Origin: Aerosakkonema sp. BLCC-F183 | GTDB lineage: Bacteria > Cyanobacteriota > Cyanobacteriia > Cyanobacteriales > Aerosakkonemataceae | Reading direction: 5' to 3' | Length of the DNA: 25,609 nucleotides | Assembly: GCF_041929145.1 (NCBI RefSeq) | Contig: NZ_JBHFNU010000005.1 | Coordinates: forward strand, 84,868-110,476 | Part shown: piece after piece, positions 192 through 25,609 of the stretch | Position numbering within the stretch: position 1 is the first letter of the stretch | How the letters are laid out: every line of letters starts with the position of its first letter | Notes under the pieces: model-generated | Seen by the model: only the letters and a program-made list of their open reading frames with translations | Told to the model about the DNA's origin: nothing | Database searches by the model: none | Made by a program: the position numbers and the translations under genes

Positions 192-674
192 ATGAATCAG
201 GGTGGCAAAGCAAATGAATTTGGTAAACGTTTAGAAAGTCTTGTAGAAACAACATTGCAAACACACGGATATATTAATTTATGCAACCAAGTACCTGAAA
301 AGCAACGCTTAGAAACACTCCATTATGCTATCGTACCAAAACGATATGGCAAGCAGGTTTACATCGGTAAGGGAATTTATGAAACTGATATTAAGGTAGA
401 TTTTTACGTTGTTGGTTTACCAACTATTCCTCATCGCTTAATCATCGAATGCAAATGGCAACAAACTAAAGGCTCGGTTGATGAAAAATTTCCCTACTTA
501 AATTTAAATATTCTAGAACATTATCTAGAGAAAACTATTGTAATAATTGCTGGAACATCGGCTAGGGAAGGAGCAATTAAGTGGTTTGAAAACCGGGTAA
601 AAGATAATCCAAACCTTTTGGCAGTCTATAATTCGATGGATAGTTTTATGGTATGGGCAAACAGAAATTTTTAA
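192..674 (+). CDS. Putative restriction endonuclease (small PD-(D/E)XK-type nuclease) paired with the Dam-family methyltransferase
   Basis: 160 aa ORF with ATG at 192 and AGGAG about 10 nt upstream. It has a D...(E)CK arrangement (TDIKVDF ... IIECKWQQTKG) compatible with a PD-(D/E)XK catalytic core. It is convergent with the adjacent Dam-like MTase and overlaps it by 29 nt at the 3' ends. The call is by context and motif only. Confidence 0.35.
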   Translation: MNQGGKANEFGKRLESLVETTLQTHGYINLCNQVPEKQRLETLHYAIVPKRYGKQVYIGKGIYETDIKVDFYVVGLPTIPHRLIIECKWQQTKGSVDEKFPYLNLNILEHYLEKTIVIIAGTSAREGAIKWFENRVKDNPNLLAVYNSMDSFMVWANRNF

Positions 675-1506
675 CTCTTACTAAAACTTCAGAAATCATG
701 CCCCTTTTCTTCGCATTGGAGTTAATATACCTTGCTGCTAATATATCCTCAATATGAAAATCTTTGTACAATTCTCGAATAAATTCGCAATTGGAATTAG
801 ACAGCATTACTTTTACGTCTTGACTGGCGAGTTTGGCAAACACTTCTTTTAGCCTAATTTGGTCTTCTTTCCTAAACGCATTGCGAGTATAAGCTGTAAA
901 TTCGCTGGTATTGCTGAGAGGATAGTACGGGGGATCGAAATAAACAAAATCATCGCTAGTTTTCGCATAATCTAAAACAGCCTCAAAACTTCTTTCTGCA
1001 ATCTCAACGCCTTGAAGTGTTTTTGATACTGTGTAAAGTAAATCTGGATTAGAAATTTTAGGATTTTTGTATTTACCTACAGGTACGTTAAATTCACCTT
1101 TCGGGTTAACTCTATAAAGACCGTTGAAGCAAGTTTTATTGAGATAAATAAACCGCGCAGCTGCTTCTAACCCCTTCAAATCATGGCAATTTCGTAAATT
1201 GTAATAGTAATCTGAATTATGTTTTTGTTGATGTTCTTCCAAAAGAGCAATCAACTTATCAACACGATCTCTAACACAAATATATGTATTAATTAAGTCA
1301 GGATTAATATCTGTTAAAACAGCTTTGAATGCTGGTCGAGTTTGTTTAAGGTAAAAGAATACTGCACCGCCTCCCAAAAAAGGTTCGTAATAGGTCTTAA
1401 ATTCCTTGGGAAAAAATGTCTCATATTGAGTAATCAACTTACTTTTACCACCAGCCCATTTGAGAAACGGACGAACAGAAACCTTGTCTTTAGCAGTAGT
1501 GGACAT
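646..1506 (-). CDS. dam: Dam-family (class D12) N6-adenine DNA methyltransferase, probably GATC-specific
   Basis: 286 aa with ATG at 1506. The N-terminal SAM-binding motif FLKWAGGKSKL...EPFLGGGAVF and the catalytic DPPY motif (YFDPPYYP) are both present. These are the hallmark motifs of Dam/DpnM-type MTases. Confidence 0.85.
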   Translation of the reverse strand: MSTTAKDKVSVRPFLKWAGGKSKLITQYETFFPKEFKTYYEPFLGGGAVFFYLKQTRPAFKAVLTDINPDLINTYICVRDRVDKLIALLEEHQQKHNSDYYYNLRNCHDLKGLEAAARFIYLNKTCFNGLYRVNPKGEFNVPVGKYKNPKISNPDLLYTVSKTLQGVEIAERSFEAVLDYAKTSDDFVYFDPPYYPLSNTSEFTAYTRNAFRKEDQIRLKEVFAKLASQDVKVMLSNSNCEFIRELYKDFHIEDILAARYINSNAKKRGMISEVLVRVKNFCLPIP

Positions 1507-9138: not shown

Positions 9139-9187
9139 AAAGTCAAAAGTCAAAAGTCAAAAGTCAAAAGTCAAAAGTCAAAAGTAA
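9139..9187. repeat. Heptanucleotide tandem repeat (AAGTCAA x~7)
   Basis: aaagtcaaaagtcaaaagtcaaaagtcaaaagtcaaaagtcaaaagtaa immediately after the large-subunit stop codon. Heptamer tandem repeats are a known cyanobacterial genome feature. Confidence 0.9.
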
Positions 9188-9445
9188 CCCACCGACACTT
9201 ATCTCATCGTAGGGTGGGTTAGGCACGGGCAATAACTTCCACACTTTCAAGCAATAATTAACTCTCCGTGCCGTAACCCACCGACACTTATCTATAACAT
9301 ACATAAACACTTTAGCTCTTTCGGATTTATGGGTAAAAATGTTTGTTAATGTTACAGTTGAGTGTGATGGTGGGTTACGGCACGGGAACTAAATTATCGG
9401 TTGAAAGTGTTGAAATTATCGCCCGTGCCTAACCCACCCTACGCT
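9186..9445. mobile_element. MITE-like nested-palindrome repeat element, copy 1
   Basis: The outer arms are TAGGGTGGGTTAGGCACGGGCAATAA ... TTATCGCCCGTGCCTAACCCACCCTA. The inner arms are CCGTGCCGTAACCCACC ... GGTGGGTTACGGCACGG. A second homologous copy lies at 24180-24497 in the same orientation. Confidence 0.7.
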
Positions 9446-9489
9446 TAGATACTGGGCTGCTTTTACTCTTGCAGGGAATTGGTTATAAT

Positions 9490-10077
9490 ATGTCGATGAT
9501 CGAACAAGCTGCTAATTCTGTGGTACTTGCTTCTGCTTCTAAGCCGTCTGCTACTGAGGTAGTCGATGCTTTGCTTCAGGCGGAGAAAGACGCCAGAAAG
9601 AACAATTTTTCTGATTCGTTCGATCGATTAATCGGCAATTGGCGTTTATGTTTTATTACCGGGACTAAAAAAACTCGCGCTAAGGCGGGAATTGTGCTGG
9701 GTGCGGGACGCTACATTCCTCAATTTGTCAAAATTGAATTGTCTTACTCGACTGCATCTGTAGAGATAGAAGAACAGAATTTTGAAGTCGGTCAAATTGA
9801 GAATCGGGTGACGATCGGAGCGCTAAAATTAGTGGTGAGCGGGCCTGCCAAATTTTTGCACAAGAAAAACATTTTGGCGTTTGACTTTACTCGCATGACG
9901 GTGCAGTTGTTGGGAGTGACGCTGTTTTCTGGATATATTCGTTCAGGTGAGGTGAAGTCAAAACAATTTTACCATGAAAGTGTGAGCAAGCAAGCGTTTT
10001 TTGCTTATTTTTTCATCACCGATAAGGCGATCGCAGCTAGAGGTAGAGGCGGCGGTTTGGCTATCTGGGGACGGTAA
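9490..10077 (+). CDS. PAP/fibrillin-family protein (plastoglobulin-like)
   Basis: About 195 aa from the ATG at 9490 (the track ORF begins at a TTG at 9469; AGGGA lies 13 nt before the ATG). It contains the fibrillin-like motif LIGNWRLCFITGTKK (compare L.GKW.L.YTS) and its length is typical of cyanobacterial fibrillins. Confidence 0.5.
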   Translation: MSMIEQAANSVVLASASKPSATEVVDALLQAEKDARKNNFSDSFDRLIGNWRLCFITGTKKTRAKAGIVLGAGRYIPQFVKIELSYSTASVEIEEQNFEVGQIENRVTIGALKLVVSGPAKFLHKKNILAFDFTRMTVQLLGVTLFSGYIRSGEVKSKQFYHESVSKQAFFAYFFITDKAIAARGRGGGLAIWGR

Positions 10078-10117: not shown

Positions 10118-10225
10118 AACCCCACCCCCAACCCCGACCCGTCCACGGGGAGGGGAGAAACAGGTGTAGGGGGAGGGGTGAAACAGGTGTAGGGGGAGGG
10201 GTGAAAGAGAGAGGGGCTTCAGGGG
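10118..10225. repeat. C-run/G-run region with a 23-nt direct repeat (GAAACAGGTGTAGGGGGAGGGGT x2), a potential G-quadruplex or long hairpin
   Basis: cccacccccaaccccgaccc followed by ggggaggggag and two copies of aaacaggtgtagggggaggggtga. It lies between the convergent fibrillin gene and the last cas-operon gene. Confidence 0.8.
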
Positions 10226-10285: not shown

Positions 10286-10906
10286 CTAATCAACGCATTT
10301 GACGCTTTTGATACTGCCATTTTTTAAGGCTGTTATTTTTACTTTTACGATCTGCCCTTGCTGGAGAGAACTCGCTTTTTTCGGTTCTTTTTCAGTCAAT
10401 TTAATCGCGCCTAATATTTGATATGTCACTTTATTACCTGCAATGCCAATAACTTGGGCATCTAAGATTTGATCGATCGCAAAATCTTGAGATTGCGTCA
10501 CTTGTAAAATTTCGGCTTGCCGAGTAGATTCTATGACAGGAGCGGTAATTTCGCCGATCGGTCCCGCTTCTTTGTAGTAGCGCATTAAGCGAATTGACCA
10601 CCCTAAAATTTGCAGGATAGCTGTTACATCATTTTGATAAAGTTGCAAATATTTGGTGCAAGTTCTTTCTATGCTATCATAATATCCAGATGTTTTTTGG
10701 CTATATCCGATTCTATTACCTTGGCGGGAAAGTGTTTGCAGATAACTAAAAAATTTCGTGCCGGCATTTTCGCGATCGCTATAAGCGCGAAGATATGCCA
10801 TCACTTTACCCAATTCATTTACATCAGTCTCTTCTTTGACCAATGTTTGAGCAATTCCGTGAGCAATTTGCCATTGAATTTCGGTTAAATCGGTGGTAGT
10901 AAACAT
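10286..10906 (-). CDS. Hypothetical protein, last gene of the type III-D-like cas operon (candidate III-D-specific accessory, Csx19-like?)
   Basis: 206 aa with ATG at 10906, immediately abutting the stop of the upstream Cas7 gene. It has a helical N-half and a beta-rich C-half (GQIVKVKITALKNGSIKSVKC). No family was recognised, and the assignment is by operon position only. Confidence 0.45.
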   Translation of the reverse strand: MFTTTDLTEIQWQIAHGIAQTLVKEETDVNELGKVMAYLRAYSDRENAGTKFFSYLQTLSRQGNRIGYSQKTSGYYDSIERTCTKYLQLYQNDVTAILQILGWSIRLMRYYKEAGPIGEITAPVIESTRQAEILQVTQSQDFAIDQILDAQVIGIAGNKVTYQILGAIKLTEKEPKKASSLQQGQIVKVKITALKNGSIKSVKCVD

Positions 10907-11947
10907 TTAATAAACTCCGTCTATAGGTTCTCTAGTTGTCGGCCATTGCAGAACTTGTTGTAACTCTTTCAATTGTTGAGATTGTACTAATTGGGTGGAT
11001 GCCGATCGCACGGCTTTTTGGATGAATTCCTGGAGGGAATTACCAGTCAGAGAAGGGGGTGAGGTGTTGTAATTGCAATAGCGATCGCGCCATTCTTTCT
11101 CTTTTTCAATCCGCTGAATTTCTGTTACTTCAACTACCATCGTTCCCATACCAATTGGTTTACCGCCTCCCACTTTTAAAGCAATGGGATTTTTACTATC
11201 TTGTCCTAACACAATCAACAGCGTTCCCAATTCGGCTAAACTTAAATTCCTAAATCCAATTTGGGTAGTAAATATCAATTCTTTTCCCGCTTGTTGAACT
11301 GGAATACCTTGTTGTCCTTTGTCAATCGATTTAACAAAATGGTAATAAAACTTGCGTCCAGCTATTCTTCCATTTATATAGTAGCCGGCACGTTGTTTTC
11401 TGGGTGCATAAAGTGAGGGCATAAATCCCACACTCCACTGTGCATTGTTGAGAATCGCATCAGAAAAGCGAATCAAACCTTGCCAATCCATTGCCCCAAA
11501 AACTTGACAAGCCGGACAAAGTTTAGTATTATCTTTACATTCCCGATAACCATTCGGAATTTGACTCTGTTCTGCCTTAGTTTTGCACAAACAACTGCGC
11601 GTAATTGCTTCATAAGTAGAACGCACAACGCCTTTAAGGGAACTTCCCGGAACGATCGACTGTCGATCGCGTCCAACGGCAGTTTTGATTAGGGGGATAT
11701 TTTTGGCATTTCCCGATAAGTCGCTACCCATTGCGACAACGCCAGAAGCGACAAAAGTAGCGGTTTTCACCGTTAAGCGCAGAAAGATTGTACCGCTAAT
11801 GCGATCGCTTTTAAACCGATCTTGTCCAATTGGTTTATCTCGCGGTGGCGGCTGACTGGGTAGAGAAATGAGTTGATAAGGTTTTGGATTAGCAGTTTCT
11901 GGTGCAGGATTAGGTTGAGGGCGTCGAATTGGTCGATTGTTAGTCAT
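10907..11947 (-). CDS. Cas7-group RAMP (Csm5/Cmr6-like) with Zn-finger insertion
   Basis: 346 aa. It has a RAMP N-terminus (PYQLISLP), a G-rich segment and the Cas7 signature IVPGSSLKGVVRS. A Cys cluster (CLCK...C...CPAC) is present. It overlaps the upstream gene by 4 nt. Confidence 0.8.
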   Translation of the reverse strand: MTNNRPIRRPQPNPAPETANPKPYQLISLPSQPPPRDKPIGQDRFKSDRISGTIFLRLTVKTATFVASGVVAMGSDLSGNAKNIPLIKTAVGRDRQSIVPGSSLKGVVRSTYEAITRSCLCKTKAEQSQIPNGYRECKDNTKLCPACQVFGAMDWQGLIRFSDAILNNAQWSVGFMPSLYAPRKQRAGYYINGRIAGRKFYYHFVKSIDKGQQGIPVQQAGKELIFTTQIGFRNLSLAELGTLLIVLGQDSKNPIALKVGGGKPIGMGTMVVEVTEIQRIEKEKEWRDRYCNYNTSPPSLTGNSLQEFIQKAVRSASTQLVQSQQLKELQQVLQWPTTREPIDGVY

Positions 11948-12459
11948 GGGGATATCTCAACAGTGAGAGCGATAAAATGTACCGTGGAAGTTTCGCGATC
12001 GATGAAATAACGTTGAGCTATTTTAACTTTGTTTGGATTATTCTTTTCATCCTTAATTATGGGATTGAGAGCGTCAGGTACAATGAATTTTTGGGGAAAC
12101 CGAGTTTCATCGGGACGATAAATGTAAGCAGGTCGTTGTTCTACTTTCCACTCTATCTTTTTATCTTGTTCCTTTTTTTTATCTCGTTCCTCATCAATAG
12201 AAGTGAAAGCAGAATCTTTACCAGTTATTGACAGCAATAATACTGAATAACCTTGACCTTGTTGTTTCCAACGCAATTCGCGATCGCAATTAAACATTTG
12301 TCCTTCTGGACTGGGAAATTCTTTTAATTCCTCTACAATTCCACTGACGCGATCTTGCCACCGAAGAAAGTAATAAGTAGGCTTTTTCGCAAATTTATCT
12401 AGCAATTTTCTGAGATCTTCAGATGAGTCAACTTGTTTAATACCTACAAAAGGATTCAT
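11944..12459 (-). CDS. Hypothetical protein embedded between Cas7 genes (candidate all1473-like III-D signature gene)
   Basis: 171 aa with ATG at 12459, coupled by 4-nt overlaps on both sides. No motif was recognised. Its position between two Cas7 genes matches the uncharacterised gene of canonical III-D loci. Confidence 0.45.
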   Translation of the reverse strand: MNPFVGIKQVDSSEDLRKLLDKFAKKPTYYFLRWQDRVSGIVEELKEFPSPEGQMFNCDRELRWKQQGQGYSVLLLSITGKDSAFTSIDEERDKKKEQDKKIEWKVEQRPAYIYRPDETRFPQKFIVPDALNPIIKDEKNNPNKVKIAQRYFIDRETSTVHFIALTVEISP

Positions 12460-13451
12460 GCTGCTGTCCCTTGCAATATTTCACACCAAGCTTCTACAGT
12501 TTGCGAGAACAATTCACGCACTTTATCGCTCCCTTCCCAACTCTGTTGCACGCCAAAATTAAACTCAATTGGTGTTGTTTTTGGTGATGTTTCTTTCAGA
12601 TCGTTAGGGGGAAAACCATAGCGGTTTCTTTCTTCATCTTCCAGAAACATTCCCGCACCCAATAAGGAAGTAAGCGGCCATTTTGTTTCTGTGCCGATCG
12701 CGCTAATTTGTTCATCTTTTATAATACAGCCAGGATATTGGACAACGGCTGAATTTAACTTAACTTCCACCAATCCCAAACCGCGAGATTTAGCGAAACC
12801 TAATCCAAACCAACCTTGATTTAAATCGCGCAATACTAAACCGATTAATCCTAATTGTGCAAGGGTAAAATTTCTGAGATGAATTTTGGTATGAAATTCT
12901 CCGGCGGTACAAACTTGAAAATTAAATGGCCCTACAGCGACCGAACCAAACACTCTGTCAATAGCTACGCCATTGCGTTCTTCAATTTTCAACAATTTGG
13001 GATTAACCGGATAAGCATCTTCTATTCTGACGCGACTGGCGATCGCAGTATTGCCAAACATTTGGGAAATAAAACAAGATTGCTTGTATAATTCCGCGCC
13101 GGGATGGGGATGATTTTTATTTTTCTTTTTCCAGTTGTCTAGGTAAAGATTGATGTTTTTTTGTTCGTCTTTGTCGTCGCTGAGAGGGTCGCTTGCCCAG
13201 ACAGTGGTAGAATTATTAGGACGGCGATCGCTTCCCACCGTCCGCACAATTCGTTCTGCATGGGCGCGAATAGCACCTTTGAGAGAACTTCCGGGTAAAT
13301 AAATTGTCCGTCCTCCGCCGTGATAGGTTTCCACAAATTCCATATCCGGTTTCGTAGGGTCAGCACCTTCTTTGCCAGATTTAATTAAGATAGGGCCAGC
13401 AGGTGTGATAGTTAATTCTATTGTACATTGATTGACAAATCGTTTAAACAT
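12456..13451 (-). CDS. Cas7-group RAMP (Csm3/Csm5-like)
   Basis: 331 aa with the Cas7 signature IYLPGSSLKGAIRAHAERI and a G-rich loop (GFAKSRGLGLVE). Confidence 0.8.
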   Translation of the reverse strand: MFKRFVNQCTIELTITPAGPILIKSGKEGADPTKPDMEFVETYHGGGRTIYLPGSSLKGAIRAHAERIVRTVGSDRRPNNSTTVWASDPLSDDKDEQKNINLYLDNWKKKNKNHPHPGAELYKQSCFISQMFGNTAIASRVRIEDAYPVNPKLLKIEERNGVAIDRVFGSVAVGPFNFQVCTAGEFHTKIHLRNFTLAQLGLIGLVLRDLNQGWFGLGFAKSRGLGLVEVKLNSAVVQYPGCIIKDEQISAIGTETKWPLTSLLGAGMFLEDEERNRYGFPPNDLKETSPKTTPIEFNFGVQQSWEGSDKVRELFSQTVEAWCEILQGTAA

Positions 13452-14319
13452 TGCTGTTTTCCTCGGCAGTGGTATTAGCAGACATAAAAGTTCTTAAATG
13501 GGTAATCAAAGCATTTGTCCATTCCTGTTTGAGGAAAGCAATTCTTTCTGGATAGCATGAGTAAATATCCATTTCTCCGTTAACCAGATTTTGCAGGTAA
13601 TTTAGTAATAACTCTGGATCGTCTTCTGCATCAAACCATTGCATTTCTTTAATATCCAATTTCACCACACCCAATCCGCGAGAACGTCCACCGCCTAACG
13701 GAATTTGTTCAGTTTCAAATTGGTGCAATCCGATGGTTAATAAACCTAATTCCCAAGCTTCGGCGTTTTCAACTACTGCTTTAAACTCAAATTGCGTTCC
13801 TGCCGGTACAACTTGAAAATCGTATAATTTCGCATCAGCAGCAGTTTCGGTATCGCGATCGATCGCAACTCCATCTCGTTCTTGATATTGTCCAAACCAA
13901 CTATCTAGTAATACCGTTAAATCTCGTACTTGAAATTTACTGGCGATCCAAGGAGAACCGAATAAGCGAGAAACTAAATCGGTTTCTTTTAAAATTGCAG
14001 TGGTGAGGTCAAAATCATCTTTGTTTTCGTCCTTAAGTTGCTTGATTTCATCAGCTTTTAGCGACCATTCATCCTCTACGGCGGGATTGGCGACTAATTT
14101 GCGATCGCTTCCCACAATCCCGCGCAGGAAGCTTTCTAAACGCGATCGCAAAGCACCTTTAAAACTCGACCCCGGAATTAAAGGTCGTCCTACCGCATCT
14201 TTAATTACTGGTAAATCCGAACCAATTGGTTCTGTGGAACGTCCCGCGCCAATTCGCAAAGCGGTGATAGTTGTGAGAGTTCCGGTGATTTCCAAACGAC
14301 TTTTGAAAGTATCAAACAT
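13444..14319 (-). CDS. Cas7-group RAMP (Csm3/Cmr4-like backbone subunit)
   Basis: 291 aa with the N-terminus LEITGTLTTITALRIGAGR ... PLIPGSSFKGALRSRLESFL and a C-terminal G-rich loop GGGRSRGLGVVKL. A SD-like AGGTGGA precedes the ATG at 14319. Confidence 0.85.
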   Translation of the reverse strand: MFDTFKSRLEITGTLTTITALRIGAGRSTEPIGSDLPVIKDAVGRPLIPGSSFKGALRSRLESFLRGIVGSDRKLVANPAVEDEWSLKADEIKQLKDENKDDFDLTTAILKETDLVSRLFGSPWIASKFQVRDLTVLLDSWFGQYQERDGVAIDRDTETAADAKLYDFQVVPAGTQFEFKAVVENAEAWELGLLTIGLHQFETEQIPLGGGRSRGLGVVKLDIKEMQWFDAEDDPELLLNYLQNLVNGEMDIYSCYPERIAFLKQEWTNALITHLRTFMSANTTAEENSNV

Positions 14320-14339: not shown

Positions 14340-15500
14340 TTACTTTTTAATGCCTTCTCTTTTGTAAATATACTCATGTGTTCCGTAGTATCGCAGAGAT
14401 AATCTTCCTCCATCTGCAACTTTGCAGCTAACTCGTCGAGTCTGAGCCGTAATGTTGATATGGTCGATATTTGTATTCTGATATCTACGAAGCCTCAGAA
14501 TATCATCGTCTTTCAAAGCGCTGATCCCATCTCCATGTTTGAATAATAGGTAAGCTGCTCTAGCTAGCCTTTCTTGCAACTGAATCCTTTCCTGAATGTC
14601 TAAAGTATTTTGGTAATCTTTGCAAAAGCTTTGTTCATAATCCAATTTAGGAAATTTGACTAAATCTTCCGAAAGTAACTCGTCTTTGCATTGATTCCAA
14701 ATCAATTTTCCCCATGTCGATAAAGTCATTTCTTTGCCATCAACCAAAACCCATTCTTCCGGGACTTTCTTTGCTTCTTCCCAAGATGTAGGAATTTCTC
14801 CAACATCCATCATTGCTAGTTGTACTTTGTATGGCTCAACCTTGGAGCGATCTACCTTTACAGGAAGTTGTGGAATTTTGATTACTTCATTCGATCCCTC
14901 AAAAACATAGACAATTTCATTAGCATAAAACATTCCAATGGTATTGAAGTAGCCTTGCAAAGCTTTGAATCCACCAACTAAATTGAAATAAATCTGGTAT
15001 TTGCTACTTTTAGAAGCAATAATTATTTCTTGCAGTGTGGGAATTAATTTTGCCATTCCCTCTATAAAGGTAGCGCTACTGGCGATGGACAGTCCAGGCT
15101 GTATACAAGTACTGGTGTTATTCAATCCGTTACTTTTCAAAAATGACTCTACAATGTTTGCAGTAACTCTAGCTTGTGCTGTGTCAGTAGCAACTAATAA
15201 ATGAGTATCTTCTGTACCCTGTTCTAGTTTATTATTGTACAAACCATAGATGCCATTCAGTTCCGCGCTCAACTCTCGGATTTCTTCAAGCTCGGTATCG
15301 TCATTGTAAAGCTTTTCTTCCGCCCTATTCTTCAACTTTTCAATAATATGGGAAATATCCTCATGATATTTTTTTATTTCATCAACAGTATAATTTGCAG
15401 TTTGCTGTAGGCACTTAGACCAGCTATCTGGATCGATATCGCGGTCAATTTGATTGGTCAATAAACTTGTACCGACAGTGGAAATTACGAGTCGAGGCAT
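14340..15500 (-). CDS. CARF-domain protein with C-terminal putative HEPN-like domain (Csm6/Csx1-type cOA-activated effector candidate), embedded in the effector operon
   Basis: 386 aa with ATG at 15500 and AAGGAG upstream. The N-terminal Rossmann strand MPRLVISTVGTSLL and the later NLVGGFKALQGY motif match the CARF core signature (hhhhS.G.S ... TGG[TF]K). The C-terminal region carries RYYGTH (R-x4-H), which is compatible with a HEPN RNase motif. Confidence 0.55.
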   Translation of the reverse strand: MPRLVISTVGTSLLTNQIDRDIDPDSWSKCLQQTANYTVDEIKKYHEDISHIIEKLKNRAEEKLYNDDTELEEIRELSAELNGIYGLYNNKLEQGTEDTHLLVATDTAQARVTANIVESFLKSNGLNNTSTCIQPGLSIASSATFIEGMAKLIPTLQEIIIASKSSKYQIYFNLVGGFKALQGYFNTIGMFYANEIVYVFEGSNEVIKIPQLPVKVDRSKVEPYKVQLAMMDVGEIPTSWEEAKKVPEEWVLVDGKEMTLSTWGKLIWNQCKDELLSEDLVKFPKLDYEQSFCKDYQNTLDIQERIQLQERLARAAYLLFKHGDGISALKDDDILRLRRYQNTNIDHINITAQTRRVSCKVADGGRLSLRYYGTHEYIYKREGIKK

Positions 15501-15534
15501 AGAGATACACTCCTTTGTAAACGATAGTTAAAAC

Positions 15535-15951
15535 CTAAATTTCACCTTTATTTTTGTATACCAGATAGCGTGCGCCATAACCAAGATAGCGACGGGTTAG
15601 CTCTAGCCAAATTTGGTTATATTCATCAACTTCAGCCGCTTTTGCTATTTCTTTAGCAGCCTCCTTAATGTCTTTATCGATGTTACGAATAATTTTTGCT
15701 GCTAAAGATTGTTCGCCTTTACCCCACTTTTTGTCACGCCCTACCTGATAACGCAAAAAGTTTTTGATTACTTCTGTGCTTTCAGTTGTATCAGCAACTC
15801 TTAGAAGATTACGAAATTGGGATTCTTGTAAATCACCATAAGAGCTTTTATCATCTAAAGCATCTTGGATCTTAGTCACTAGCTTATCCTCAGCTTGGCG
15901 AATACCTTTTTGAATCTTGAGTTGTTTTTGCGGATCGAATGGTTCGTTCAT
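15535..15951 (-). CDS. Cas11-like small subunit (Csm2/Cmr5-type, alpha-helical)
   Basis: About 138 aa from the ATG at 15951, which forms an ATGA overlap with the Cas5 stop (the track start at 15990 is TTG). It is small, Lys/Glu-rich and helical, and sits directly after Cas5 as in III-D loci. Confidence 0.5.
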   Translation of the reverse strand: MNEPFDPQKQLKIQKGIRQAEDKLVTKIQDALDDKSSYGDLQESQFRNLLRVADTTESTEVIKNFLRYQVGRDKKWGKGEQSLAAKIIRNIDKDIKEAAKEIAKAAEVDEYNQIWLELTRRYLGYGARYLVYKNKGEI

Positions 15952-17222
15952 ACAGGTTCCTCCTGAAATACAAGATGAAATTCGTTGCAAACTTCAATTT
16001 GACCGAAGCCTTCACAGGTGCGATCGCCGACACCTACAATCTCTAAATTTTCTAATGCTTTCATCCAAGCATCTCGTTGTGCAGTGCTAAATAAATACAC
16101 CGCTCCTTTATTAGTTATCAGTTCCACATCTTTCATCAATCCCCAAGCAGAATTCCAGCCAGAACGATAGTCATAGCTACTATACGCTGCTTCAAGTTTT
16201 AAGGTGGAATCTTTAACGCCAGTAAACTTTTTTAGCATTTCTTCCGAAATTACAGTGGTACCCTGCCAGTTATCGGTCAAAATCGCCTCAGAGTGTAAAT
16301 CCAAAGAAAAGTAGGTGCGATCGATCGCCAATTCTTTTAAAGGACTACCAAATACTCTCCATTCCTTCCAACGTTGTCCAAGTTTTTCATTAAAATTCTC
16401 GACTTTTGCAACTACATTGGGTTTAATATCTACAATTTTAGCTTGAATTTTGACTTTTCCCAACCCGCGTGAAGTAGAACCACCTAAGCGGAAATTTTCA
16501 CTGCGATCGAGAATAAATTGCGTCAGAGAATCTGCCAAACTATCTTCTACCAAAATTGAGCCGCAGTAAATAACAGGTTTGGGCTTTTTACCTTTCGATT
16601 CAGATTCATTCAGAACTTCTATGCTGTAAAGTATTTCCTCTTCAGCCGTAGCCAGTCTTCGATTAATACCTACTCGTGTTAATAGGCGTTTATTAACACT
16701 ATGAGCGTGATATTTATCATTGAGTTTGCTGTAAAAACAACTATGTGCATCGACTCGCCCTCCGTCTGTTGGACAATTGGGATCGTAGGGATAACCGTAA
16801 CCTTCAGCACAGAAGCGATCGATCAGAGTATCGAAAACGCCGTTACTTCCTTTTTTAGACGTAAACCCAGAGCTATTTTTAGAACTCAGCGCAGTAGTAG
16901 GTAGCACCCTAACTTCTGGTTGTAATATAGTTTTATCCTTTATTTCTATAGTTGCAGGATAAGCATTTTGAAAAATTGCGGGAGTATCATCAAGAAATAA
17001 AGCCTGAAAATCACCGCCATTTTCTGAGAAATCTTGGCTCCATTCCTGCTGTTGTTCGCTTTGTTGTAGCTGACGATATTTTTGCAAAATTTGAGCGGCA
17101 ATTGCACCCCGAATTACGCTTCCGGGAATATAACTTTCTACTTCGCTAATTGAACCGCCTGGTTTCTGGCGTGCTATTGCCAGAGGAGATAAAGCTTTAA
17201 TTTCTAATAGAATGCGCTTCAT
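15948..17222 (-). CDS. Cas5-group RAMP (Csx10/Csm4-like)
   Basis: About 424 aa from the ATG at 17222, which forms an ATGA overlap with the upstream stop (the track start at 17252 appears to be TTG). It has LEIKALSPLAIARQ...YIPGSVIRGAIAAQ, reminiscent of the Csm4 L.L.F.SPLHIG...IPGS.IKG pattern, and a C-terminal G-rich loop GGSTSRGLGKV. Confidence 0.65.
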   Translation of the reverse strand: MKRILLEIKALSPLAIARQKPGGSISEVESYIPGSVIRGAIAAQILQKYRQLQQSEQQQEWSQDFSENGGDFQALFLDDTPAIFQNAYPATIEIKDKTILQPEVRVLPTTALSSKNSSGFTSKKGSNGVFDTLIDRFCAEGYGYPYDPNCPTDGGRVDAHSCFYSKLNDKYHAHSVNKRLLTRVGINRRLATAEEEILYSIEVLNESESKGKKPKPVIYCGSILVEDSLADSLTQFILDRSENFRLGGSTSRGLGKVKIQAKIVDIKPNVVAKVENFNEKLGQRWKEWRVFGSPLKELAIDRTYFSLDLHSEAILTDNWQGTTVISEEMLKKFTGVKDSTLKLEAAYSSYDYRSGWNSAWGLMKDVELITNKGAVYLFSTAQRDAWMKALENLEIVGVGDRTCEGFGQIEVCNEFHLVFQEEPV

Positions 17223-17959
17223 TGCACCCTTCCTTTTGCCAAGAATTGCCAAACAGTTTCATCCACTTGAATTTCAGGTAAATCCCAATGTAACCAACCT
17301 AAACCCGCAGATTTACTGCCGCCCAGTGCGTGAATATGCCGCAAACCAGCCCAAATCAGCGCTTTAGCATAATCAGGTCGATCGGGTGTTACGGGTGTTA
17401 GGCTTGGTTGGATGTGAATATTACCCTCAAATCTGAGTTTAAGATTTACGGGAGAGGTTTCCAAAAAGTAAAGTTTTTTCTCCTCCGCAGTGCGGCGACG
17501 GCGATTAATCGTCACACCCGGACGGATAACTTCAGGTAAATTTTCAGGGTCTTCTGTGCAAACTAAATCATCAAAGATTACTCGTGATGGTAAAACCGGA
17601 TCGCCAAATATTTGGCTAATTAAACAGTGATATGTTTCATTATACCCTGCAACTTGATACTCGCTACGACAAAATTCGCTCGGTGAACTTTCTCGCCGTA
17701 AAACCATTTTTTTAGGGCTAGGAGATTTACAAATTGCCCAACCCAAAGCCCTTGCAAATTTTTCGCATTCATGGCGCAGGCGACCCTTGACTTGAGAGCC
17801 AGGAATTAGCAGATTTGTTTGGGAGTCTCGAACAATCGGTTTATCTGCTAGGGAACTAGAAGAACCACCAGCACCTACACACAAAGCCGTATCAATTATA
17901 GCAGTAATTTTGTGTGTTTCTACTTCAATTAAATTTGATAAATTTCTGAGAAATATCAT
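17219..17959 (-). CDS. Cas7-group RAMP, small (Csm3-like)
   Basis: 246 aa with CVGAGGSSS...LLIPGSQVKGRLRHE. Its start overlaps the cas10 stop (TGATG). Confidence 0.75.
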   Translation of the reverse strand: MIFLRNLSNLIEVETHKITAIIDTALCVGAGGSSSSLADKPIVRDSQTNLLIPGSQVKGRLRHECEKFARALGWAICKSPSPKKMVLRRESSPSEFCRSEYQVAGYNETYHCLISQIFGDPVLPSRVIFDDLVCTEDPENLPEVIRPGVTINRRRRTAEEKKLYFLETSPVNLKLRFEGNIHIQPSLTPVTPDRPDYAKALIWAGLRHIHALGGSKSAGLGWLHWDLPEIQVDETVWQFLAKGRVQ

Positions 17960-20346
17960 CAGTCAGCCTCCTGAGTTACAAGTCTTTCCTGGGATGTTCC
18001 AGAATCTTCAGATGTCTCAATGAAGTCATAGAGGTCTACCAGTTCTCGCCAAATTGTTTCGTAGGTTGTCTCTCCTGGTTCTAGAATGGACATCCAAGGA
18101 GCTAGATTACCCTTATTATTTTGCTCTTTTGGTTGACACCAAGCTTCTTCAAACTTTTCTTTTAATTCTTGTTGTCCTTGCTGGAGTCGAACTCGAAAAT
18201 AACGGTAGTTAAGAATAGCGGTATGCTTGCCCCGTTCCAGTAGATCGCGAATTTGGTACAGTTGCGATCGCGGAAATTTTGCCTTGTTCAATGCGTCGAT
18301 TGTCTCAATCAATCCTCCTAATTCATGCAAAGTATAAGGGGCCGCATATAGCTTTAAAGTAGGAGTGTGTATGTCCTTAATTTTCACCTCTGGATTTTTA
18401 ATTAATGCCTGCTTTCTGAACTCGTCGATATCGGATGAAATCATCGTTACAGCTTTCAGCACTAAAAAATCAACCGTACCGCCACAATAGCCATATTTTC
18501 TCAACTTCTTTGCCTTGCTTTTAGCAGATTTAAGTAACTGCTCATAAAGGTTTTTTGCGTAGTAAATAGGAGTGTTGTAAGCTGTAATCAACACGCCGCT
18601 CGATATACTTAGTTGACACTGAGAAAGTTCTGCTTTTTCGCTTGAGTAGCGGTGGCATTTTTTGAGGTCAATTGGCTTTTCAGATTGCTTAGTATGATAG
18701 TTGCCTTGAATTTCTACACCTGCCAGAGATACTTGTTTGAGGAGGATTTTTTCAAACTGCTCGCCAATCATTTTAGCGATCGCCAATGCCTGAGAAGCTG
18801 GCACAATCAAAATAATATCATCTCCGCCAATCGTAATAATTTCAAAGGGATGAATGAAATCACCATCCTGCCATCTTGAATCTGGATCTTTAATTCCTCT
18901 AATCTGGCGGGGATGAAGATTATATGCTAAGGCTTGATAAACAGCATACTCAGTTGCGTTGGCCACATCTTCGCTAAACTCTTTGTATTTTTCTGGCGTA
19001 GTGCATATTTTCTGAATAAATCCTCCCATGTTGTTGCCATCAGCATAAATATAGGCAACAAAACCATTGCTGACATTGCCTAAATGCGTTAATGATTTAG
19101 CAATTTTAACATCATCCTGTTGGCAGGTTTGATAATATTGCTGACATTGCTCGGAATTTTTCTGTAAAAATTCCTCGAATTTGTCAACCCAACCTTCTAT
19201 TATTCCAGGTTGCCATTCTAGCCCGGTATTTTTGTACCATTCTGGTGTTTTAGCTAATCCCGTTTTAGCGCGATCGCCTACTCGTCTTTTACGTGCAGAA
19301 ACTTCAGAAAATTGAGATTCGCTGGGCAATAAAGGTGGCTGAACGATCGCCACAGCAGATCTGCGATCGCCTTCATCCCTTCTCAAATAAGGATGAGTTT
19401 CAAACATCGGTGGGTAGCGGCGACTGGGGCGATCGGGAAAATCATTTCCACTGCGGCGTTGATTAAACAGAATCGCCAATTTAGTTGTTAATTCATTAAA
19501 ACTTTTCCGGTTAGCAAAAGCTTCTTCAACAGATACCGGATCGCTAATACATGGCTCATTTGGCTTTTTCTCCAAGTTGCCAAAGTAAGCCCGAACCAAT
19601 GGTTTATTATATTCTTGACGATACCGCTCTAACCAGAAATTATTTTCAATGGGGTCTTGTAGCAGACCAAATCGAGTTTCCATTAACCTAAAGGTATCGG
19701 CGACTGCACAGGAATTAGCTGCTAAAGTTTCCTCGGTGTAACGCTTTTCAATAGCATTAGCTAAGTCATCTGCAAAAGCCGCTGGGCAAAACGCCAGAAT
19801 ATTACCGCCAGTTGAGTAGATGATTAGTTCAGGAATTAACGCATCTGAAAATTTTGGTTCATTAGGAAAGTTGTCGTTAAGCCATGTTCTTACTTCTTGA
19901 CACTGGATAGTGTAGTTGTAGAGAATTGATTCAGGGTTTTTGTTAAAAAAAGCAGGCAAATCGCTCAGATTGATTCGATCTAGTAGTGCAGAAGCACCCC
20001 GAATATCTGGGAGTTTTGCCGCTTCAAATACGTATTGTTTAATCTTGGTTGCACCGCCGTAAACCAAGCCTATTCGAGAGTTCCAAAGGATAGAATGCTG
20101 TTCGGCCAATAACTTTAACTCATCTAACGTTTTGGGAAACTTTAGAGTTTCTAATTGCTTGACTTGTTCGAGGAGCGATCGCATTTTTTCTGGAATATCT
20201 GTCCCAGCGTGCAATGCTTCCCGCATCTGGTGCAATTCCTTGATATCAAATTGCGGTTGGCGCTGTTCTCCCCAAGCCAGACACCAGGCGATTCCAACGA
20301 AAAGCTTTCCTGATGCTGTCTTTATGTCTTGTTGAAAGTTACTCAT
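17959..20346 (-). CDS. cas10: Cas10 large subunit of a type III CRISPR-Cas effector complex (III-D-like, no recognisable N-terminal HD domain, intact GGDD cyclase motif)
   Basis: 795 aa with ATG at 20346. The palm/cyclase motif FEIITIGGDDIILIVPASQALAIA is present. No H..HD..D motif is found in the first ~150 aa. It is the first gene of a coupled RAMP operon with the order cas10-cas7-cas5-cas11. Confidence 0.85.
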   Translation of the reverse strand: MSNFQQDIKTASGKLFVGIAWCLAWGEQRQPQFDIKELHQMREALHAGTDIPEKMRSLLEQVKQLETLKFPKTLDELKLLAEQHSILWNSRIGLVYGGATKIKQYVFEAAKLPDIRGASALLDRINLSDLPAFFNKNPESILYNYTIQCQEVRTWLNDNFPNEPKFSDALIPELIIYSTGGNILAFCPAAFADDLANAIEKRYTEETLAANSCAVADTFRLMETRFGLLQDPIENNFWLERYRQEYNKPLVRAYFGNLEKKPNEPCISDPVSVEEAFANRKSFNELTTKLAILFNQRRSGNDFPDRPSRRYPPMFETHPYLRRDEGDRRSAVAIVQPPLLPSESQFSEVSARKRRVGDRAKTGLAKTPEWYKNTGLEWQPGIIEGWVDKFEEFLQKNSEQCQQYYQTCQQDDVKIAKSLTHLGNVSNGFVAYIYADGNNMGGFIQKICTTPEKYKEFSEDVANATEYAVYQALAYNLHPRQIRGIKDPDSRWQDGDFIHPFEIITIGGDDIILIVPASQALAIAKMIGEQFEKILLKQVSLAGVEIQGNYHTKQSEKPIDLKKCHRYSSEKAELSQCQLSISSGVLITAYNTPIYYAKNLYEQLLKSAKSKAKKLRKYGYCGGTVDFLVLKAVTMISSDIDEFRKQALIKNPEVKIKDIHTPTLKLYAAPYTLHELGGLIETIDALNKAKFPRSQLYQIRDLLERGKHTAILNYRYFRVRLQQGQQELKEKFEEAWCQPKEQNNKGNLAPWMSILEPGETTYETIWRELVDLYDFIETSEDSGTSQERLVTQEAD

Positions 20347-20662: not shown

Positions 20663-21220
20663 CTATTGAGGTTTGAGAAAGAGGTTTAACTCCAAATGGA
20701 AGATGTTGCGAATCTTAAGCAACAAACATACACCAGCGTGCGGAATCTTTGCCATATCCCGCAGAGTCGGACATAATCCATTTACAGCCACATTTTCAAC
20801 TGCTGAACTTATAATTTCAACAGGCTGCTTCTCCGATTTGTTGGTAGGGTGGTTTGTAGGATGGAATTCCAGGCTTTGCGGGTGATGGAGTGGCGCTTTT
20901 GCTTGTGAAGTGAGCAAGATGCCCAAATCTGTAGTCGCCCATGTTGGCTGCCCTATAATGGGTGTAGCCGCGAGAACAGCTTGCTTCCCCTCTCCAAAAA
21001 CTAAAATCGTTGATGGAGAAAAAACCTTTGAGATTGAGCCAGGATTGTACGAAAGGCTCAAATTACCTAACAACCCACAGGTTAAATTGCTGGATTGTTG
21101 ATTTTGTAAGGTTTGGAGGAAACAAGCTGTTCTCGCTGGGCTTTGAGTAGTTAATTGAGTTTGGAAAGTTATCTCGCTTAAGGAAGCGTTTTTTGTCAAC
21201 TTTGGTATTGCTTGAGGCAT
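20663..21220 (-). CDS. Hypothetical Ser/Thr/Gln-rich protein upstream of cas10
   Basis: 185 aa ORF with ATG at 21220, no clear SD and low complexity (HPTNHPTN). It could be non-coding leader or promoter space instead. Confidence 0.25.
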   Translation of the reverse strand: MPQAIPKLTKNASLSEITFQTQLTTQSPARTACFLQTLQNQQSSNLTCGLLGNLSLSYNPGSISKVFSPSTILVFGEGKQAVLAATPIIGQPTWATTDLGILLTSQAKAPLHHPQSLEFHPTNHPTNKSEKQPVEIISSAVENVAVNGLCPTLRDMAKIPHAGVCLLLKIRNIFHLELNLFLKPQ

Positions 21221-21684: not shown

Positions 21685-22281
21685 TTACGAACTCGCCATC
21701 GCACCTTGCTGCAACTCTCTCACCACCCATTCCAATTCCTCCACCATCCAACTGCTACTCAACTGGCGGTAAATCTGCAATTGTTCTTGATAAAGCCATA
21801 ACACCCCTTCCTTACCGCCTCGGAAATAATGCCAAATTTCTTCGCCAAATTGCCTAAAATTAACCAACATAGTCCGCGCATTGTGCAACTTATCCGCCAG
21901 CATCACCCTTTGCACTGGCGGACAAGCATCTCGTAGCTGTTGGAGATATTGCTGTTTGTGTTCTTTCCAAGTCGGATATAAACTCGGTTCTGGCTCGGTG
22001 CAACCTTCTATAATATGGAAAACGCGATCGCCAAATCGCTGCAAAATTTCCGCCTTCGTTACTTCTCCCCCTCGGTCTTCCAGCGCATCGTGCAATAAAG
22101 CGGAAATTGCCTCATCTTCATCTCCTCCATCTTCCAACACCAAAGCCGCTACGCTCAACAAATGGGCAATATAAGGAGTACCTGTAATTTTCCGTTGTTG
22201 GTCGCCATGAAGTTGCGCCGCATATACCAACGCTTCCTGAAAACGCGAAGTTAAAATTGTCAAACACCGTTCATTCTTCAT
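21685..22281 (-). CDS. Small alarmone hydrolase-type HD-domain protein (RelA/SpoT hydrolase fold, Mesh1/SAH-like)
   Basis: 198 aa with ATG at 22281. The HD motifs LHGDQQRKITGTPYIAHLLSVAALV and AISALLHDALEDRGG match the (p)ppGpp-hydrolase HD_4 signature. It overlaps the upstream WYL gene by 11 nt. Confidence 0.8.
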   Translation of the reverse strand: MKNERCLTILTSRFQEALVYAAQLHGDQQRKITGTPYIAHLLSVAALVLEDGGDEDEAISALLHDALEDRGGEVTKAEILQRFGDRVFHIIEGCTEPEPSLYPTWKEHKQQYLQQLRDACPPVQRVMLADKLHNARTMLVNFRQFGEEIWHYFRGGKEGVLWLYQEQLQIYRQLSSSWMVEELEWVVRELQQGAMASS

Positions 22282-23686
22282 AAATTTTCCATTCTTTTTC
22301 GACTTCTCTCTTCGCCTGTTCTCGTAATTCCACAGGGAGGAGAATTTCTACATTCGGTCGCCACGCACGCAAGCGCTGCATTACGTTAGGATCGCCTTGG
22401 CGATATTGCGCTTGGTAATAAGCATCTTGGGGAGAACATTTGCGCCAAATATTTAACATCTTTTGTTGTTGTTCTCCCTTTAAGTTCTGCCGAATTAATC
22501 GTTCTACTTCTTGATATGCCACTCGCGCAAAGGTAGCATGGCGCATAGTATTGCGGATGTAGCGATTATCCCACTCGCGATCGAACCTCAATAGTAGCAG
22601 TTGTGGGGGTTGATAGTAATCAAAACCCCAAACTTCTGCGATCGCTAATTGGATATCATCGGGAATAGGCAGAGTCTTCTTTTGATATCGCCGTTTCAGC
22701 GCCACCGGAACTTGCGGATCGTCCCAACTCAAAGGGATCGAATCCTGAATGCGATCGAGCCGATAATTGCGAAAATCTAATTTTCCCGATTCGTCTTGCG
22801 GAACTTCGCCAAACGCACACAAATACGGCCCTCTCTGATAATAATAAATGCAAACGGGATAAACTACCACCGACAAAGTTGTTTGCCATACCGCACTTTC
22901 ATAACTTAACAAAATCGGCGGTACAACTTCCTGTTGCCAAAGTTCCCGCAGTTGTGCTTGCCATTCTTCGACACGATCGATCGAGTCTTGCGGAATCACA
23001 TATTCCAGATGGATAAAAAAGCGCTGCTGACCATTCAATCGCGTGGAAAGATTATCTGCGATCGCAGCCAAATCCGGTTGCGTGAGAAAATCCAAATTGT
23101 AAGCTATCAGACGAGAATCTGATTTTTGGATCGAACTCGGCGTCCGTGGATATTTCTTAACCCGATAATACCGATTTCCTTGGCGTTTCAGCCACCCGAT
23201 TTCTATCAAAACTTGCAAATCGCCATAAAGCGATCGTCTTGTCAAGCCAAACAAACGAGTATCGTGCAACAATTCTTTAAGGTTATCCGGTAACAAATGA
23301 TGTTCCCGCAAAGATTGTTCAAACGATCGCTCTTTTTCCTGTACTTCCGGCTTCCCTAATTCCCCTTTCCACTTTGACTGAGTTAAATTGAAATCAGAAC
23401 CAAATAACCAAGCAGCAACAGTTTTCGCACAACGGCATTTCGGGTCGTGCAACGCCGGAATTTCTTCTTCTCTAGTATGAGTCGCAGTAAAAAAAGCATC
23501 TCGCCATTCAGGATAAGTAAAATTTTCCGGCAAATTCAACTTAATGCCGGCTTCCCCATACAGAAAGTGCAACCACACCCACAACCGCACCGCCTGTAGC
23601 AATCTTTGTTTTAAATCTCCCCGCGCCAGCCATTGCAGCAGTTCCACACGAGGAGGTTCATTCCAAAAGGGGTTGACCGTTTCCAA
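22271..23686 (-). CDS. WYL-domain protein with winged-HTH (putative ligand-sensing transcriptional regulator associated with the type III locus)
   Basis: 471 aa with an apparent TTG start. A wHTH-like segment RLFGLTRRSLYGDLQVLIEIGWLKRQGNRYYRV is present. The WYL-domain core YPVCIYYYQRGPYLCAFGE...GKLDFRNYRLDRIQDSIPL matches the P..L.y..g.WYL.a....R.FRLdRI consensus. Confidence 0.6.
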   Translation of the reverse strand: METVNPFWNEPPRVELLQWLARGDLKQRLLQAVRLWVWLHFLYGEAGIKLNLPENFTYPEWRDAFFTATHTREEEIPALHDPKCRCAKTVAAWLFGSDFNLTQSKWKGELGKPEVQEKERSFEQSLREHHLLPDNLKELLHDTRLFGLTRRSLYGDLQVLIEIGWLKRQGNRYYRVKKYPRTPSSIQKSDSRLIAYNLDFLTQPDLAAIADNLSTRLNGQQRFFIHLEYVIPQDSIDRVEEWQAQLRELWQQEVVPPILLSYESAVWQTTLSVVVYPVCIYYYQRGPYLCAFGEVPQDESGKLDFRNYRLDRIQDSIPLSWDDPQVPVALKRRYQKKTLPIPDDIQLAIAEVWGFDYYQPPQLLLLRFDREWDNRYIRNTMRHATFARVAYQEVERLIRQNLKGEQQQKMLNIWRKCSPQDAYYQAQYRQGDPNVMQRLRAWRPNVEILLPVELREQAKREVEKEWKIYEE

Positions 23687-24156: not shown

Positions 24157-24179
24157 TGATAATAAAAACTTTTTAATAG

Positions 24180-24497
24180 TAGGGTGGGTTAGGCACGCGC
24201 AATAATTTCAATACTTTCGATCGATAATTAAGTTCCCGTGCCGTAACCCACCATCCCACCTACCTGTAACATTGACAAACATTTTCCACCATAAACCCTC
24301 TAGACCCGAAGATTGTACCCTATCAACCCAAAAGAACCAAGCGTTAAAACGCAACAACATACGAAGGTCTGTAAATCTAGCTCTTTCAAGTTTATGCTTC
24401 GCTTTTGTAACAGACAATTGTGATGGTGGGTTACGGCACGGACAGTTAATTATTAGTTTTTTGAGAGAAATTATCGCCCGTGCCTAACCCACCCTAC
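24180..24497. mobile_element. MITE-like nested-palindrome repeat element, copy 2
   Basis: TAGGGTGGGTTAGGCACGCGCAATAA ... CCCGTGCCGTAACCCACC ... GGTGGGTTACGGCACGG ... TTATCGCCCGTGCCTAACCCACCCTA. It is homologous to copy 1 with a longer central segment, and it is inserted between the two Csx3-like genes. Confidence 0.7.
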
Positions 24498-24532
24498 TGC
24501 TAAATCCAAAAAACTCAACAAAAGGAATAAAA

Positions 24533-25465
24533 ATGAATACGATCGCCTTACAAAAACAAGTTGAACTGCAAGTCACCGAACTGAAAACCGCACAAGGAAG
24601 TTATCAAACTTTGGCGATTAGCTTAGTGATGTTCCAGGAACTAATAAAAACTGATGTACTCGCACAATTGAAACTTCCTGACGAACTAGACTTGAGCAGA
24701 GAAGTAATTTTATACGGTATAGCTCCTACTTGGTTGTATGCCAATTTAGTAGAACGCTGTTGGCAAGCGCCTTGGATAGGATGCTATACAGCGCCAAAAA
24801 ATCAAATTGTTGTAATTCAAAGTCGGATATCAACAATAAGTATAGGCGATGCGATACCTGTATTGCTTAACAACATTCCTTGTCCGGCAATTTTAATAGG
24901 TGGTTCGCCTGACAGCGGCAAAAGCGTTTTATCGAATGCTTTGCGTTTTAATTTGATGAAAACCGGAGCATTCAAACGAGTATTTGTACATCGCGCTTCT
25001 TGGGATGGTGAGGGAAATTGGGTTTACGAAGTAGCGAATCGGGATTTAGCTAAAAAGCTGATTGTAGAAAACGAGTTTCGATTGCACGAAAATCCCGAAA
25101 CGGCGAAGTTAATACCGAAATTCTTTAAATATCATAGCTCGGCGGTACAGAATTTGCGGGAAGTTGTCGATTTGGTTTTGGTTGATGTGGGTGGTAAACC
25201 GCAGCAAGAGAAAGCGCCTCTGGTCGCACAATGTACGCACTATATAATTATTAGTAAAGAATCAGATGAGATTCCCAAATGGCACGAGCTTTGTCATCCA
25301 ACTTTGCAGCCGTTAACGGTGATTCACAGCGTCCGACAAAAACGAGAAGAAGTTTGGCAAAAACAACCTTTTTTGGAAATCATCGACGGACGCTGGTGCG
25401 AAGGTGAAATCCAGTCTGTTCCCGATATCTTGCTGGAAAATGTGCTTAGGGTTTTGCACGCCTAG
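24533..25465 (+). CDS. Csx3-like N-terminal domain fused to a P-loop NTPase (Csx3-AAA-type accessory protein)
   Basis: 310 aa with ATG at 24533 and AAAGGAA upstream. Residues ~1-115 are paralogous to the 118-aa ORF. Walker A ILIGGSPDSGKSVLSNAL and a Walker-B-like hydrophobic strand DLVLVDVGG are present. Confidence 0.5.
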   Translation: MNTIALQKQVELQVTELKTAQGSYQTLAISLVMFQELIKTDVLAQLKLPDELDLSREVILYGIAPTWLYANLVERCWQAPWIGCYTAPKNQIVVIQSRISTISIGDAIPVLLNNIPCPAILIGGSPDSGKSVLSNALRFNLMKTGAFKRVFVHRASWDGEGNWVYEVANRDLAKKLIVENEFRLHENPETAKLIPKFFKYHSSAVQNLREVVDLVLVDVGGKPQQEKAPLVAQCTHYIIISKESDEIPKWHELCHPTLQPLTVIHSVRQKREEVWQKQPFLEIIDGRWCEGEIQSVPDILLENVLRVLHA

Positions 25466-25556
25466 AGCGCCAGCAGACCCGGATTTGGTACAACGCGGTG
25501 GGGTAGCGCCCATCTGAGCCGACACAACACCCTTTAAATTATTTATTTAAATAAAA

Positions 25557-25609
<53 letters not shown>

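Follow-up and report, generated by a model that had tools for sequence, protein, structure and literature searches.

The window analysed here is a stretch of 25,609 nucleotides (nt) from Aerosakkonema sp. BLCC-F183 (contig NZ_JBHFNU010000005.1). It carries an operon of ten minus-strand genes, in the order cas10, cas7a, csx10, cas11/csm2, effector, cas7b, cas7c, csx19, cas7d and csx21. The fifth of these, called the effector gene below, encodes a protein of 386 amino acids (aa) which is a member of the known CARF-RelE (Cami1) family, historically mislabelled 'Csm6'. The genes and the ribosome binding signal of the effector gene are as follows (wHTH, winged helix-turn-helix; ORF, open reading frame).

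17959..20346, minus strand: cas10, 795 aa, first gene of the operon (Pfam Cas10-Cmr2_palm2, TIGR02577)
17219..17959, minus strand: cas7a, a cas7 gene of the Csx7/Csm3-like RAMP type (Pfam RAMPs, TIGR02581)
15948..17252, minus strand: csx10, the type III-D Cas5 (TIGR02674, E 4e-132)
15535..15951, minus strand: cas11, the III-D Csm2 (PADLOC Csm2, E 4e-60, matching aa 15-149 of a longer ORF; limits from junction analysis)
15510..15515, minus strand: Shine-Dalgarno sequence AAGGAG, 9 nt upstream of the effector ATG
14340..15500 (stop codon included), minus strand: effector gene, CARF-wHTH-RelE, 386 aa, ATG start (Cami1 or 'CARF7--CARF_RelE' family)
13444..14319, minus strand: cas7b, a cas7 gene (Csx7) directly downstream of the effector gene (TIGR02581, E 3e-76)
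12456..13451, minus strand: cas7c, a cas7 gene (Pfam RAMPs, TIGR02581)
11944..12459, minus strand: csx19 (PADLOC Csx19, E 7e-51)
10907..11947, minus strand: cas7d, a cas7 gene of the TIGR03986 type (E 1e-40)
10286..10906, minus strand: csx21, last gene of the operon (PADLOC Csx21, E 6e-90)

With cas10, csx10, cas11, four separate RAMP/Cas7 genes and csx19, the host system is a type III-D1 CRISPR-Cas system, according to the definition and nomenclature of PMC13294483. The Cas10 translation contains IITIGGDDIILIV, so the GGDD cyclase motif is present and intact, as the original prediction had stated. No HD domain was detected among the Pfam and TIGR profile matches of the 795-aa Cas10. Neither a CRISPR array nor cas6, cas1 or cas2 was found within the window (1-25609), so for this III-D system they must lie elsewhere.

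The ORF map and the junctions agreed with the original prediction that the effector gene sits between cas11 and the cas7 genes, inside the operon rather than at its periphery. It also has the predicted AAGGAG of its own and the predicted gaps, 34 nt to the cas11/csm2 stop codon (15535-15537) and 20 nt to the cas7 start at 14319. These two are the only non-overlapping junctions of the operon; the others overlap or abut (-1, -4, -8, -4, -4 and 0 nt). The likely ATG of cas11 (15949-15951) shares an ATGA overlap with the stop codon of csx10. No terminator-like site was found on the coding (minus) strand within the operon, and promoter-like matches for the effector gene itself were no better than those in shuffled sequence. 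The gene has a GC content of 37.6% and its neighbours span 36.8-42.8%, so nothing in the composition points to a recent foreign insertion.

The effector ORF is clearly a real gene, not a reading frame that arose by chance. NCBI lists the identical protein under Aerosakkonema sp. BLCC-F183, and a search at E<=1e-3 gave 746 homologues. The AlphaFold2 model of the full protein had a mean predicted local distance difference test score (pLDDT) of 90. The gene is intact, at 34-71% identity, in 80 species-representative genomes, nearly all of them filamentous or colonial cyanobacteria; these genomes were retrieved through the CARF-RelE protein, so the set is biased towards presence of the gene.

Family membership was evident from PADLOC profiles. 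The profile PDLC01934 ('CARF7--CARF_RelE') matched aa 1-376 over profile positions 1-358 of 359 (E 3.8e-123), and the C-terminal 167 aa alone still matched it (E 3.6e-37). A second profile, PDLC01033 ('CARF+RelE'), matched the protein with E 5e-58. As in the family, the effector is encoded together with a type III module whose Cas10 has a GGDD cyclase site. The protein can be divided into three parts.

14856..15500, minus strand: CARF domain of the CARF7/APE2256 type, about aa 1-215 (Pfam PF09651, TIGR02619)
14664..14855, minus strand: winged-helix-type linker domain, about aa 216-279, as in Crn1 and Cami1
14343..14663, minus strand: RelE/ParE-fold domain, aa 280-386, with the topology beta-alpha-alpha-(alpha)-beta-beta-beta-alpha

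The original prediction had named LVISTVGTS and NLVGGFK as CARF signatures and RYYGTH as an R-x4-H motif, and the translation has these strings at aa 4-12, 173-179 and 370-375. The CARF part of its reading as a Csm6/Csx1-type RNase activated by cyclic oligoadenylate (cOA) stood: Pfam PF09651 matches aa 76-212 (E 1e-27), and TIGR02619 exceeds its own cutoff. Among solved structures, those closest in sequence belong to Cami1 and to the Crn1 ring nucleases Sis0811 and Sso1393. S12 (in GTS) and K179 (in GGFK) align opposite S12 and K169 of Sis0811, which are the positions changed in its ring-nuclease mutants PDB 7pq6 and 7pqa. At the sequence level both are invariant in the family alignment, and both occur in Cami1 of Allochromatium vinosum (AvCami1) and in Sll7062 of Synechocystis sp. 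PCC 6803. In the model, aa 216-279 form a helix-helix-hairpin-helix unit, which can be aligned to the winged helix of Sso1393 and Cami1. Assignment as a stand-alone Crn1 ring nuclease was rejected, with NCBIfam NF040951 scoring 48.6 bits against a cutoff of 600 and an extra 107-aa RelE domain present.

Structure prediction, which the original prediction had proposed, gave the C-terminal domain alone a pLDDT of 94 and a RelE/ParE toxin fold. The suspicion that this region is no textbook HEPN and could be another nuclease or effector domain was borne out, since both the AlphaFold2 fold and the PADLOC profile indicate a RelE-type domain. In the model, RYYGTH lies on the last strand (strand 4) and the start of the C-terminal helix. 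The toxins YafQ, YoeB and RelE carry catalytic residues in this part of the fold. We counted residue conservation over 92 cluster representatives, 24-65% identical to the window protein. R356 is conserved in 99% of them, C359 and G373 each in 95%, H347 in 93%, H375 in 89% and R370 in 77%; in some family members H...E replaces R...H. From family conservation and strand position, H347, R356 and H375 are candidate catalytic residues. The C-terminus of E. coli YafQ (RTGTHAALFG) resembles RYYGTH by eye, a lead only, as the profile comparison was non-significant.

A profile search of 1.84 billion protein representatives found the domain in only 181 clusters, none of them identifiable as a free-standing toxin. 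In every match whose remaining sequence allowed a judgement, the RelE-like domain was joined to CARF. Most of the matches are about 365-395 aa long with the RelE-like domain at the C-terminus, and all five that were checked with Pfam carry CARF; the shorter ones are possibly fragments. One metagenomic protein (P0224, 1149 aa) combines a Peptidase_C14 caspase, an nSTAND1 NTPase and CARF(APE2256) with a C-terminal RelE-like domain; it may be a true fusion or may result from faulty gene calling.

Two members of the family have been studied, and the window protein differs from both. An A. vinosum plasmid gene located by tblastn is that of the crystallised Cami1 (PDB 8phb/8phj; Mogila et al. 2023, Science 382:1036). 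AvCami1 is about 22-28% identical to the window protein over CARF plus wHTH only, has a longer C-terminal tail, and falls under a PADLOC sub-profile other than PDLC01934. Its gene is the first of a III-B (cmr) operon and overlaps cmr1, whereas the window gene is mid-operon. Sll7062 (SyCsm6) is likewise a cyanobacterial CARF7-RelE protein and aligned with the window protein over aa 1-304 (hhalign, 99.9% probability, 32% identity). Like the window gene, it is associated with III-D effector genes, with which it forms one transcription unit, and it has ring-nuclease activity (PMC9676260). However, its gene is the last of the operon, after the cas7-insertion gene, and not between cas11 and cas7. 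Sll7062 belongs to a III-Dv system with fused subunits, has a divergent RelE region and showed no RNase activity in vitro. The Crn1 proteins Sso1393, Sso2081 and Sis0811 end after the wHTH, at about 180-275 aa, and lack an effector domain, while the window protein adds the RelE domain. Compared with the free type II toxins YafQ, YoeB, RelE and HigB, the window domain showed no significant sequence similarity, is fused to a cOA sensor, and has no antitoxin gene. According to Shah et al. 2018, 'Csm6, CARF+RelE' is the third largest type III accessory cluster, and accessory genes are 'intertwined' with the cassettes.

We consider it probable that the window protein is a three-domain ancillary effector of the III-D1 system, consisting of a CARF7/Crn1-type CARF, a winged-helix linker and a RelE/ParE-fold ribonuclease, with a proposed translation arrest driven by cyclic tetra-adenylate (cA4). 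A crRNA-guided complex would bind a foreign transcript, and the Palm/GGDD site of Cas10 would then make cA4. Binding of cA4 to the CARF dimer would release the RelE domains, by homology to Cami1 and SyCsm6. The freed domains, if they act as in A. vinosum Cami1, would cut mRNA in the ribosomal A site and so stop translation in the infected cell. Cleavage of this kind, together with capture by the L12 stalk, characterises the Cami1 family. The CARF site (S12, K179) may slowly cleave cA4 and make the response self-limiting, and the neighbouring Csx3-AAA may help to switch it off. As an accessory cassette, the effector gene would be co-transcribed with the complex from the cas10 promoter and translated from its own ribosome binding site. 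What we observed in the window and its homologues, and what this proposal builds on, is the domain architecture, the CARF Ser/Lys pair, the conserved RelE-domain residues, the Cas10 GGDD motif and membership of the operon.

The studied relatives agree with several of these steps. Ribosomal A-site mRNA cleavage and translation arrest are attributed to Cami1 in the part of PMC11229360 that cites Mogila 2023, and Cami1 possesses ring-nuclease activity (PMC12409355). Sll7062 degrades cOA (PMC9676260), and its co-transcription with the III-Dv operon has been shown experimentally in Synechocystis (PMC9676260; bioRxiv 10.1101/2023.12.07.570523). Two further genes of the window may be involved in the response or its control.

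24533..25465, plus strand: csx3-AAA, a Crn3-type domain fused to an AAA ATPase (PADLOC Csx3-AAA, E 9e-65; Pfam Cas_csx3), probably the second cA4-degrading component of the locus
22271..23686, minus strand: CRISPR-associated HTH-WYL gene (PADLOC WYL, E 3e-162), the product of which is a probable regulator

Several observations weigh against the reading as a translation-arresting ribonuclease. The comparison of the domain profile with E. coli YafQ (NC_000913.3) by hhalign gave E 0.11 and a probability of 0.5%, and the alignment covered the N-terminal half only. Scanned against Pfam at E<=10, 27 sequences of the domain had no significant match; YafQ_toxin appeared for two of the 27, at E 0.1. 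As significant similarity to free RelE/YafQ toxins was not found, the RelE assignment rests on the predicted structure and on the label of the PADLOC family. Nor could the window domain be aligned to its counterparts in AvCami1 and Sll7062; hhalign ended at aa 272 and aa 300 of the window protein, respectively, and a MAFFT alignment of the region was unreliable, so their catalytic residues are not transferable to the window protein. At position 349 the window protein has N, against R in 93% of the 92 family representatives. SyCsm6, the sole characterised cyanobacterial relative, had no RNase activity in a ribosome-free assay (PMC9676260). We infer cA4 as the activator from the CARF7 family, and what is known of the cyanobacterial III-D1 CARF-RelE subfamily comes entirely from sequence and predicted structure.

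Position 349 (14455-14457) also varies within the cyanobacteria. The residue is N (HINIT) in the window protein and its close clade and D (HFD) in other cyanobacterial members, against R (HFR) in most family representatives. The clade of the window protein further shows a one-residue insertion and an extra R355. The change at residue 349 may reflect a shift in the active site or the substrate site.

The alternative that survives best is that the protein is mainly a Crn1-like ring nuclease, an off-switch which limits cA4 signalling for another effector, with the RelE-like domain catalytically silent or structural. The S12/K179 pair and the cOA degradation by Sll7062 would suit such a function, yet we regard it as unlikely. 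Among representatives only 24-65% identical to the window protein, residues H347, R356, C359, G373 and H375 are nevertheless kept at the high levels given above, which argues for a selected activity and against a silent domain. The negative SyCsm6 assay was carried out without the ribosomes that RelE-type enzymes and Cami1 need. Moreover, the 25.6-kb window yielded no second cOA-activated effector; outside the operon it offers only the Csx3-AAA, WYL and HD_4 genes in this respect. The CARF-RelE protein, as the only recognisable cOA-activated effector in the window, is thus a natural candidate for the immune output of the widespread cyanobacterial III-D1 systems.

Much less credible is a Csa3-like, cOA-responsive transcription regulator that would control the cas operon through the winged helix. 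The protein does have this domain, but the same wHTH occurs in Crn1 and Cami1, neither of which is known as a regulator; the locus already has a dedicated HTH-WYL regulator gene; and the conserved C-terminal RelE domain would be left unexplained.

HEPN domains are all-alpha. The remaining part of the original prediction, a Csm6/Csx1-type CARF-HEPN RNase with RYYGTH as its R-x4-H site, which would degrade free RNA non-specifically, has next to no chance of being right, since the C-terminal domain holds a four-stranded sheet and the string lies on strand 4 and the C-terminal helix of a RelE fold. The arginine and histidine of the string are fairly well kept (R370 and H375, above), and several PADLOC 'Csm6' profiles match the protein, but over the CARF region only. 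The PADLOC CARF+HEPN profile covers just aa 3-201, the Csm6 and Csx1 structures match through their CARF domains only, and an all-alpha domain with an R-x4-6-H active site was not found in the protein.

The CARF-RelE effector is found at the same place in many genomes. In 70 of the 80 species genomes, cas11 (or csx10) precedes it and cas7b follows it, and 56 of those 70 have the complete ten-gene order within the fetched stretch. The mid-operon position is therefore old and ordinary for the clade. We also took a census through cas7b, instead of through the effector, in metagenomes; this gave only seven III-D1 loci. The effector was present in three of them, and in three others (L087-L089) cas11 was followed directly by cas7b. 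In the seventh (L090), the cas11|cas7b junction held a 215-aa CRISPR-associated PD-DExK protein (L090:6150-6797; PADLOC PDLC01472, E 2e-48). Locus L088 had a different CARF7 protein, of 298 aa, after csx21 at the operon end. In a Symbiobacterium metagenome-assembled genome (L071:5452-11134), a CARF-RelE gene of the same subfamily as the window gene (PDLC01934, E 6e-116) follows cas10-csm2-csm3-csm4 of a III-A-like operon and overlaps the csm4 stop codon; csm5 was not detected in this operon, and a type I-B cassette directly follows.

The mid-operon position is thus not essential, because the junction is empty or filled by PD-DExK in some loci, because L088 has its different CARF7 protein after csx21, because only the two junctions around the gene are non-overlapping in the window, and because the family is last in the Synechocystis III-Dv operon, first in A. 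vinosum III-B and after csm4 in Symbiobacterium. As far as the small number of seven loci goes, the cas11|cas7b junction acts as an accessory slot with variable content. A bolder version would make the junction a dedicated accessory slot, from which CARF-RelE is produced in a fixed ratio with the effector complex and docked on it, which would keep cA4 signalling and the arrest of translation local instead of cell-wide. The docking idea fits Grad-seq data cited in PMC9676260, in which SyCsm6 co-sediments with the CRISPR2 complex; we nevertheless hold this version to be improbable.

The family, its architecture and its mechanism are already known, and profile libraries already recognise the window protein. 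Three points are new. The cyanobacterial III-D1 subfamily is divergent, being 22-32% identical to the two studied proteins (AvCami1 and Sll7062) with RelE domains that are unalignable by sequence. This RelE domain type was found only in the 181 clusters described above, joined to CARF where this was judged. The cas11|cas7b junction varies between an empty state, CARF-RelE and a PD-DExK gene, a modest comparative observation on the entry of accessory genes into type III operons. The analysis amounts mainly to a correction of annotation, from a 'Csm6/HEPN'-looking RNase gene to a putative Cami1-type, translation-arresting effector. The Cami1-type reading predicts another target, ribosome-bound mRNA, and other assay conditions, in which ribosomes are required.

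The operon lies among several other features of the window. Two elements of about 270-330 nt, at 9184-9451 and 24172-24504, are in direct orientation and 79-100% identical in blocks. Both have long internal inverted repeats (88-nt arms, 85% complementary) and look like miniature inverted-repeat transposable elements. The pair brackets the whole cas operon together with orf185, the HD_4 gene and the WYL gene, and csx3-AAA lies just outside. The HD_4 gene (21685-22281, minus strand; Pfam HD_4, E 8e-23) has an 11-nt overlap with the HTH-WYL gene, and a WYL/HD-like pair lies next to the III-D operon in about 20 related loci. Two ORFs of 185 and 202 aa, at 20663-21220 (minus strand) and 9469-10077 (plus strand), flank the operon and are putative genes. 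Neither had a Pfam match, and orf185 had no tblastn homologue in the related loci. No Rfam match reached the gathering threshold within the window.

Near the beginning of the window, a PD-(D/E)XK_11 nuclease gene (192-674, plus strand) and a D12-class N6-adenine methyltransferase gene (646-1506, minus strand) are convergent with overlapping 3' ends, and form a probable type II restriction-modification pair. The window closes with 61 nt of poly-A (25549-25609), perhaps an artefact of assembly or of the contig end. Simple repeats were found on the csx21 side of the operon, AAAGTCA in 6.7 copies at 9139-9185 and, just downstream of csx21, the 23-nt unit GGGGAGGGGTGAAACAGGTGTAG in 2.6 copies at 10147-10215.
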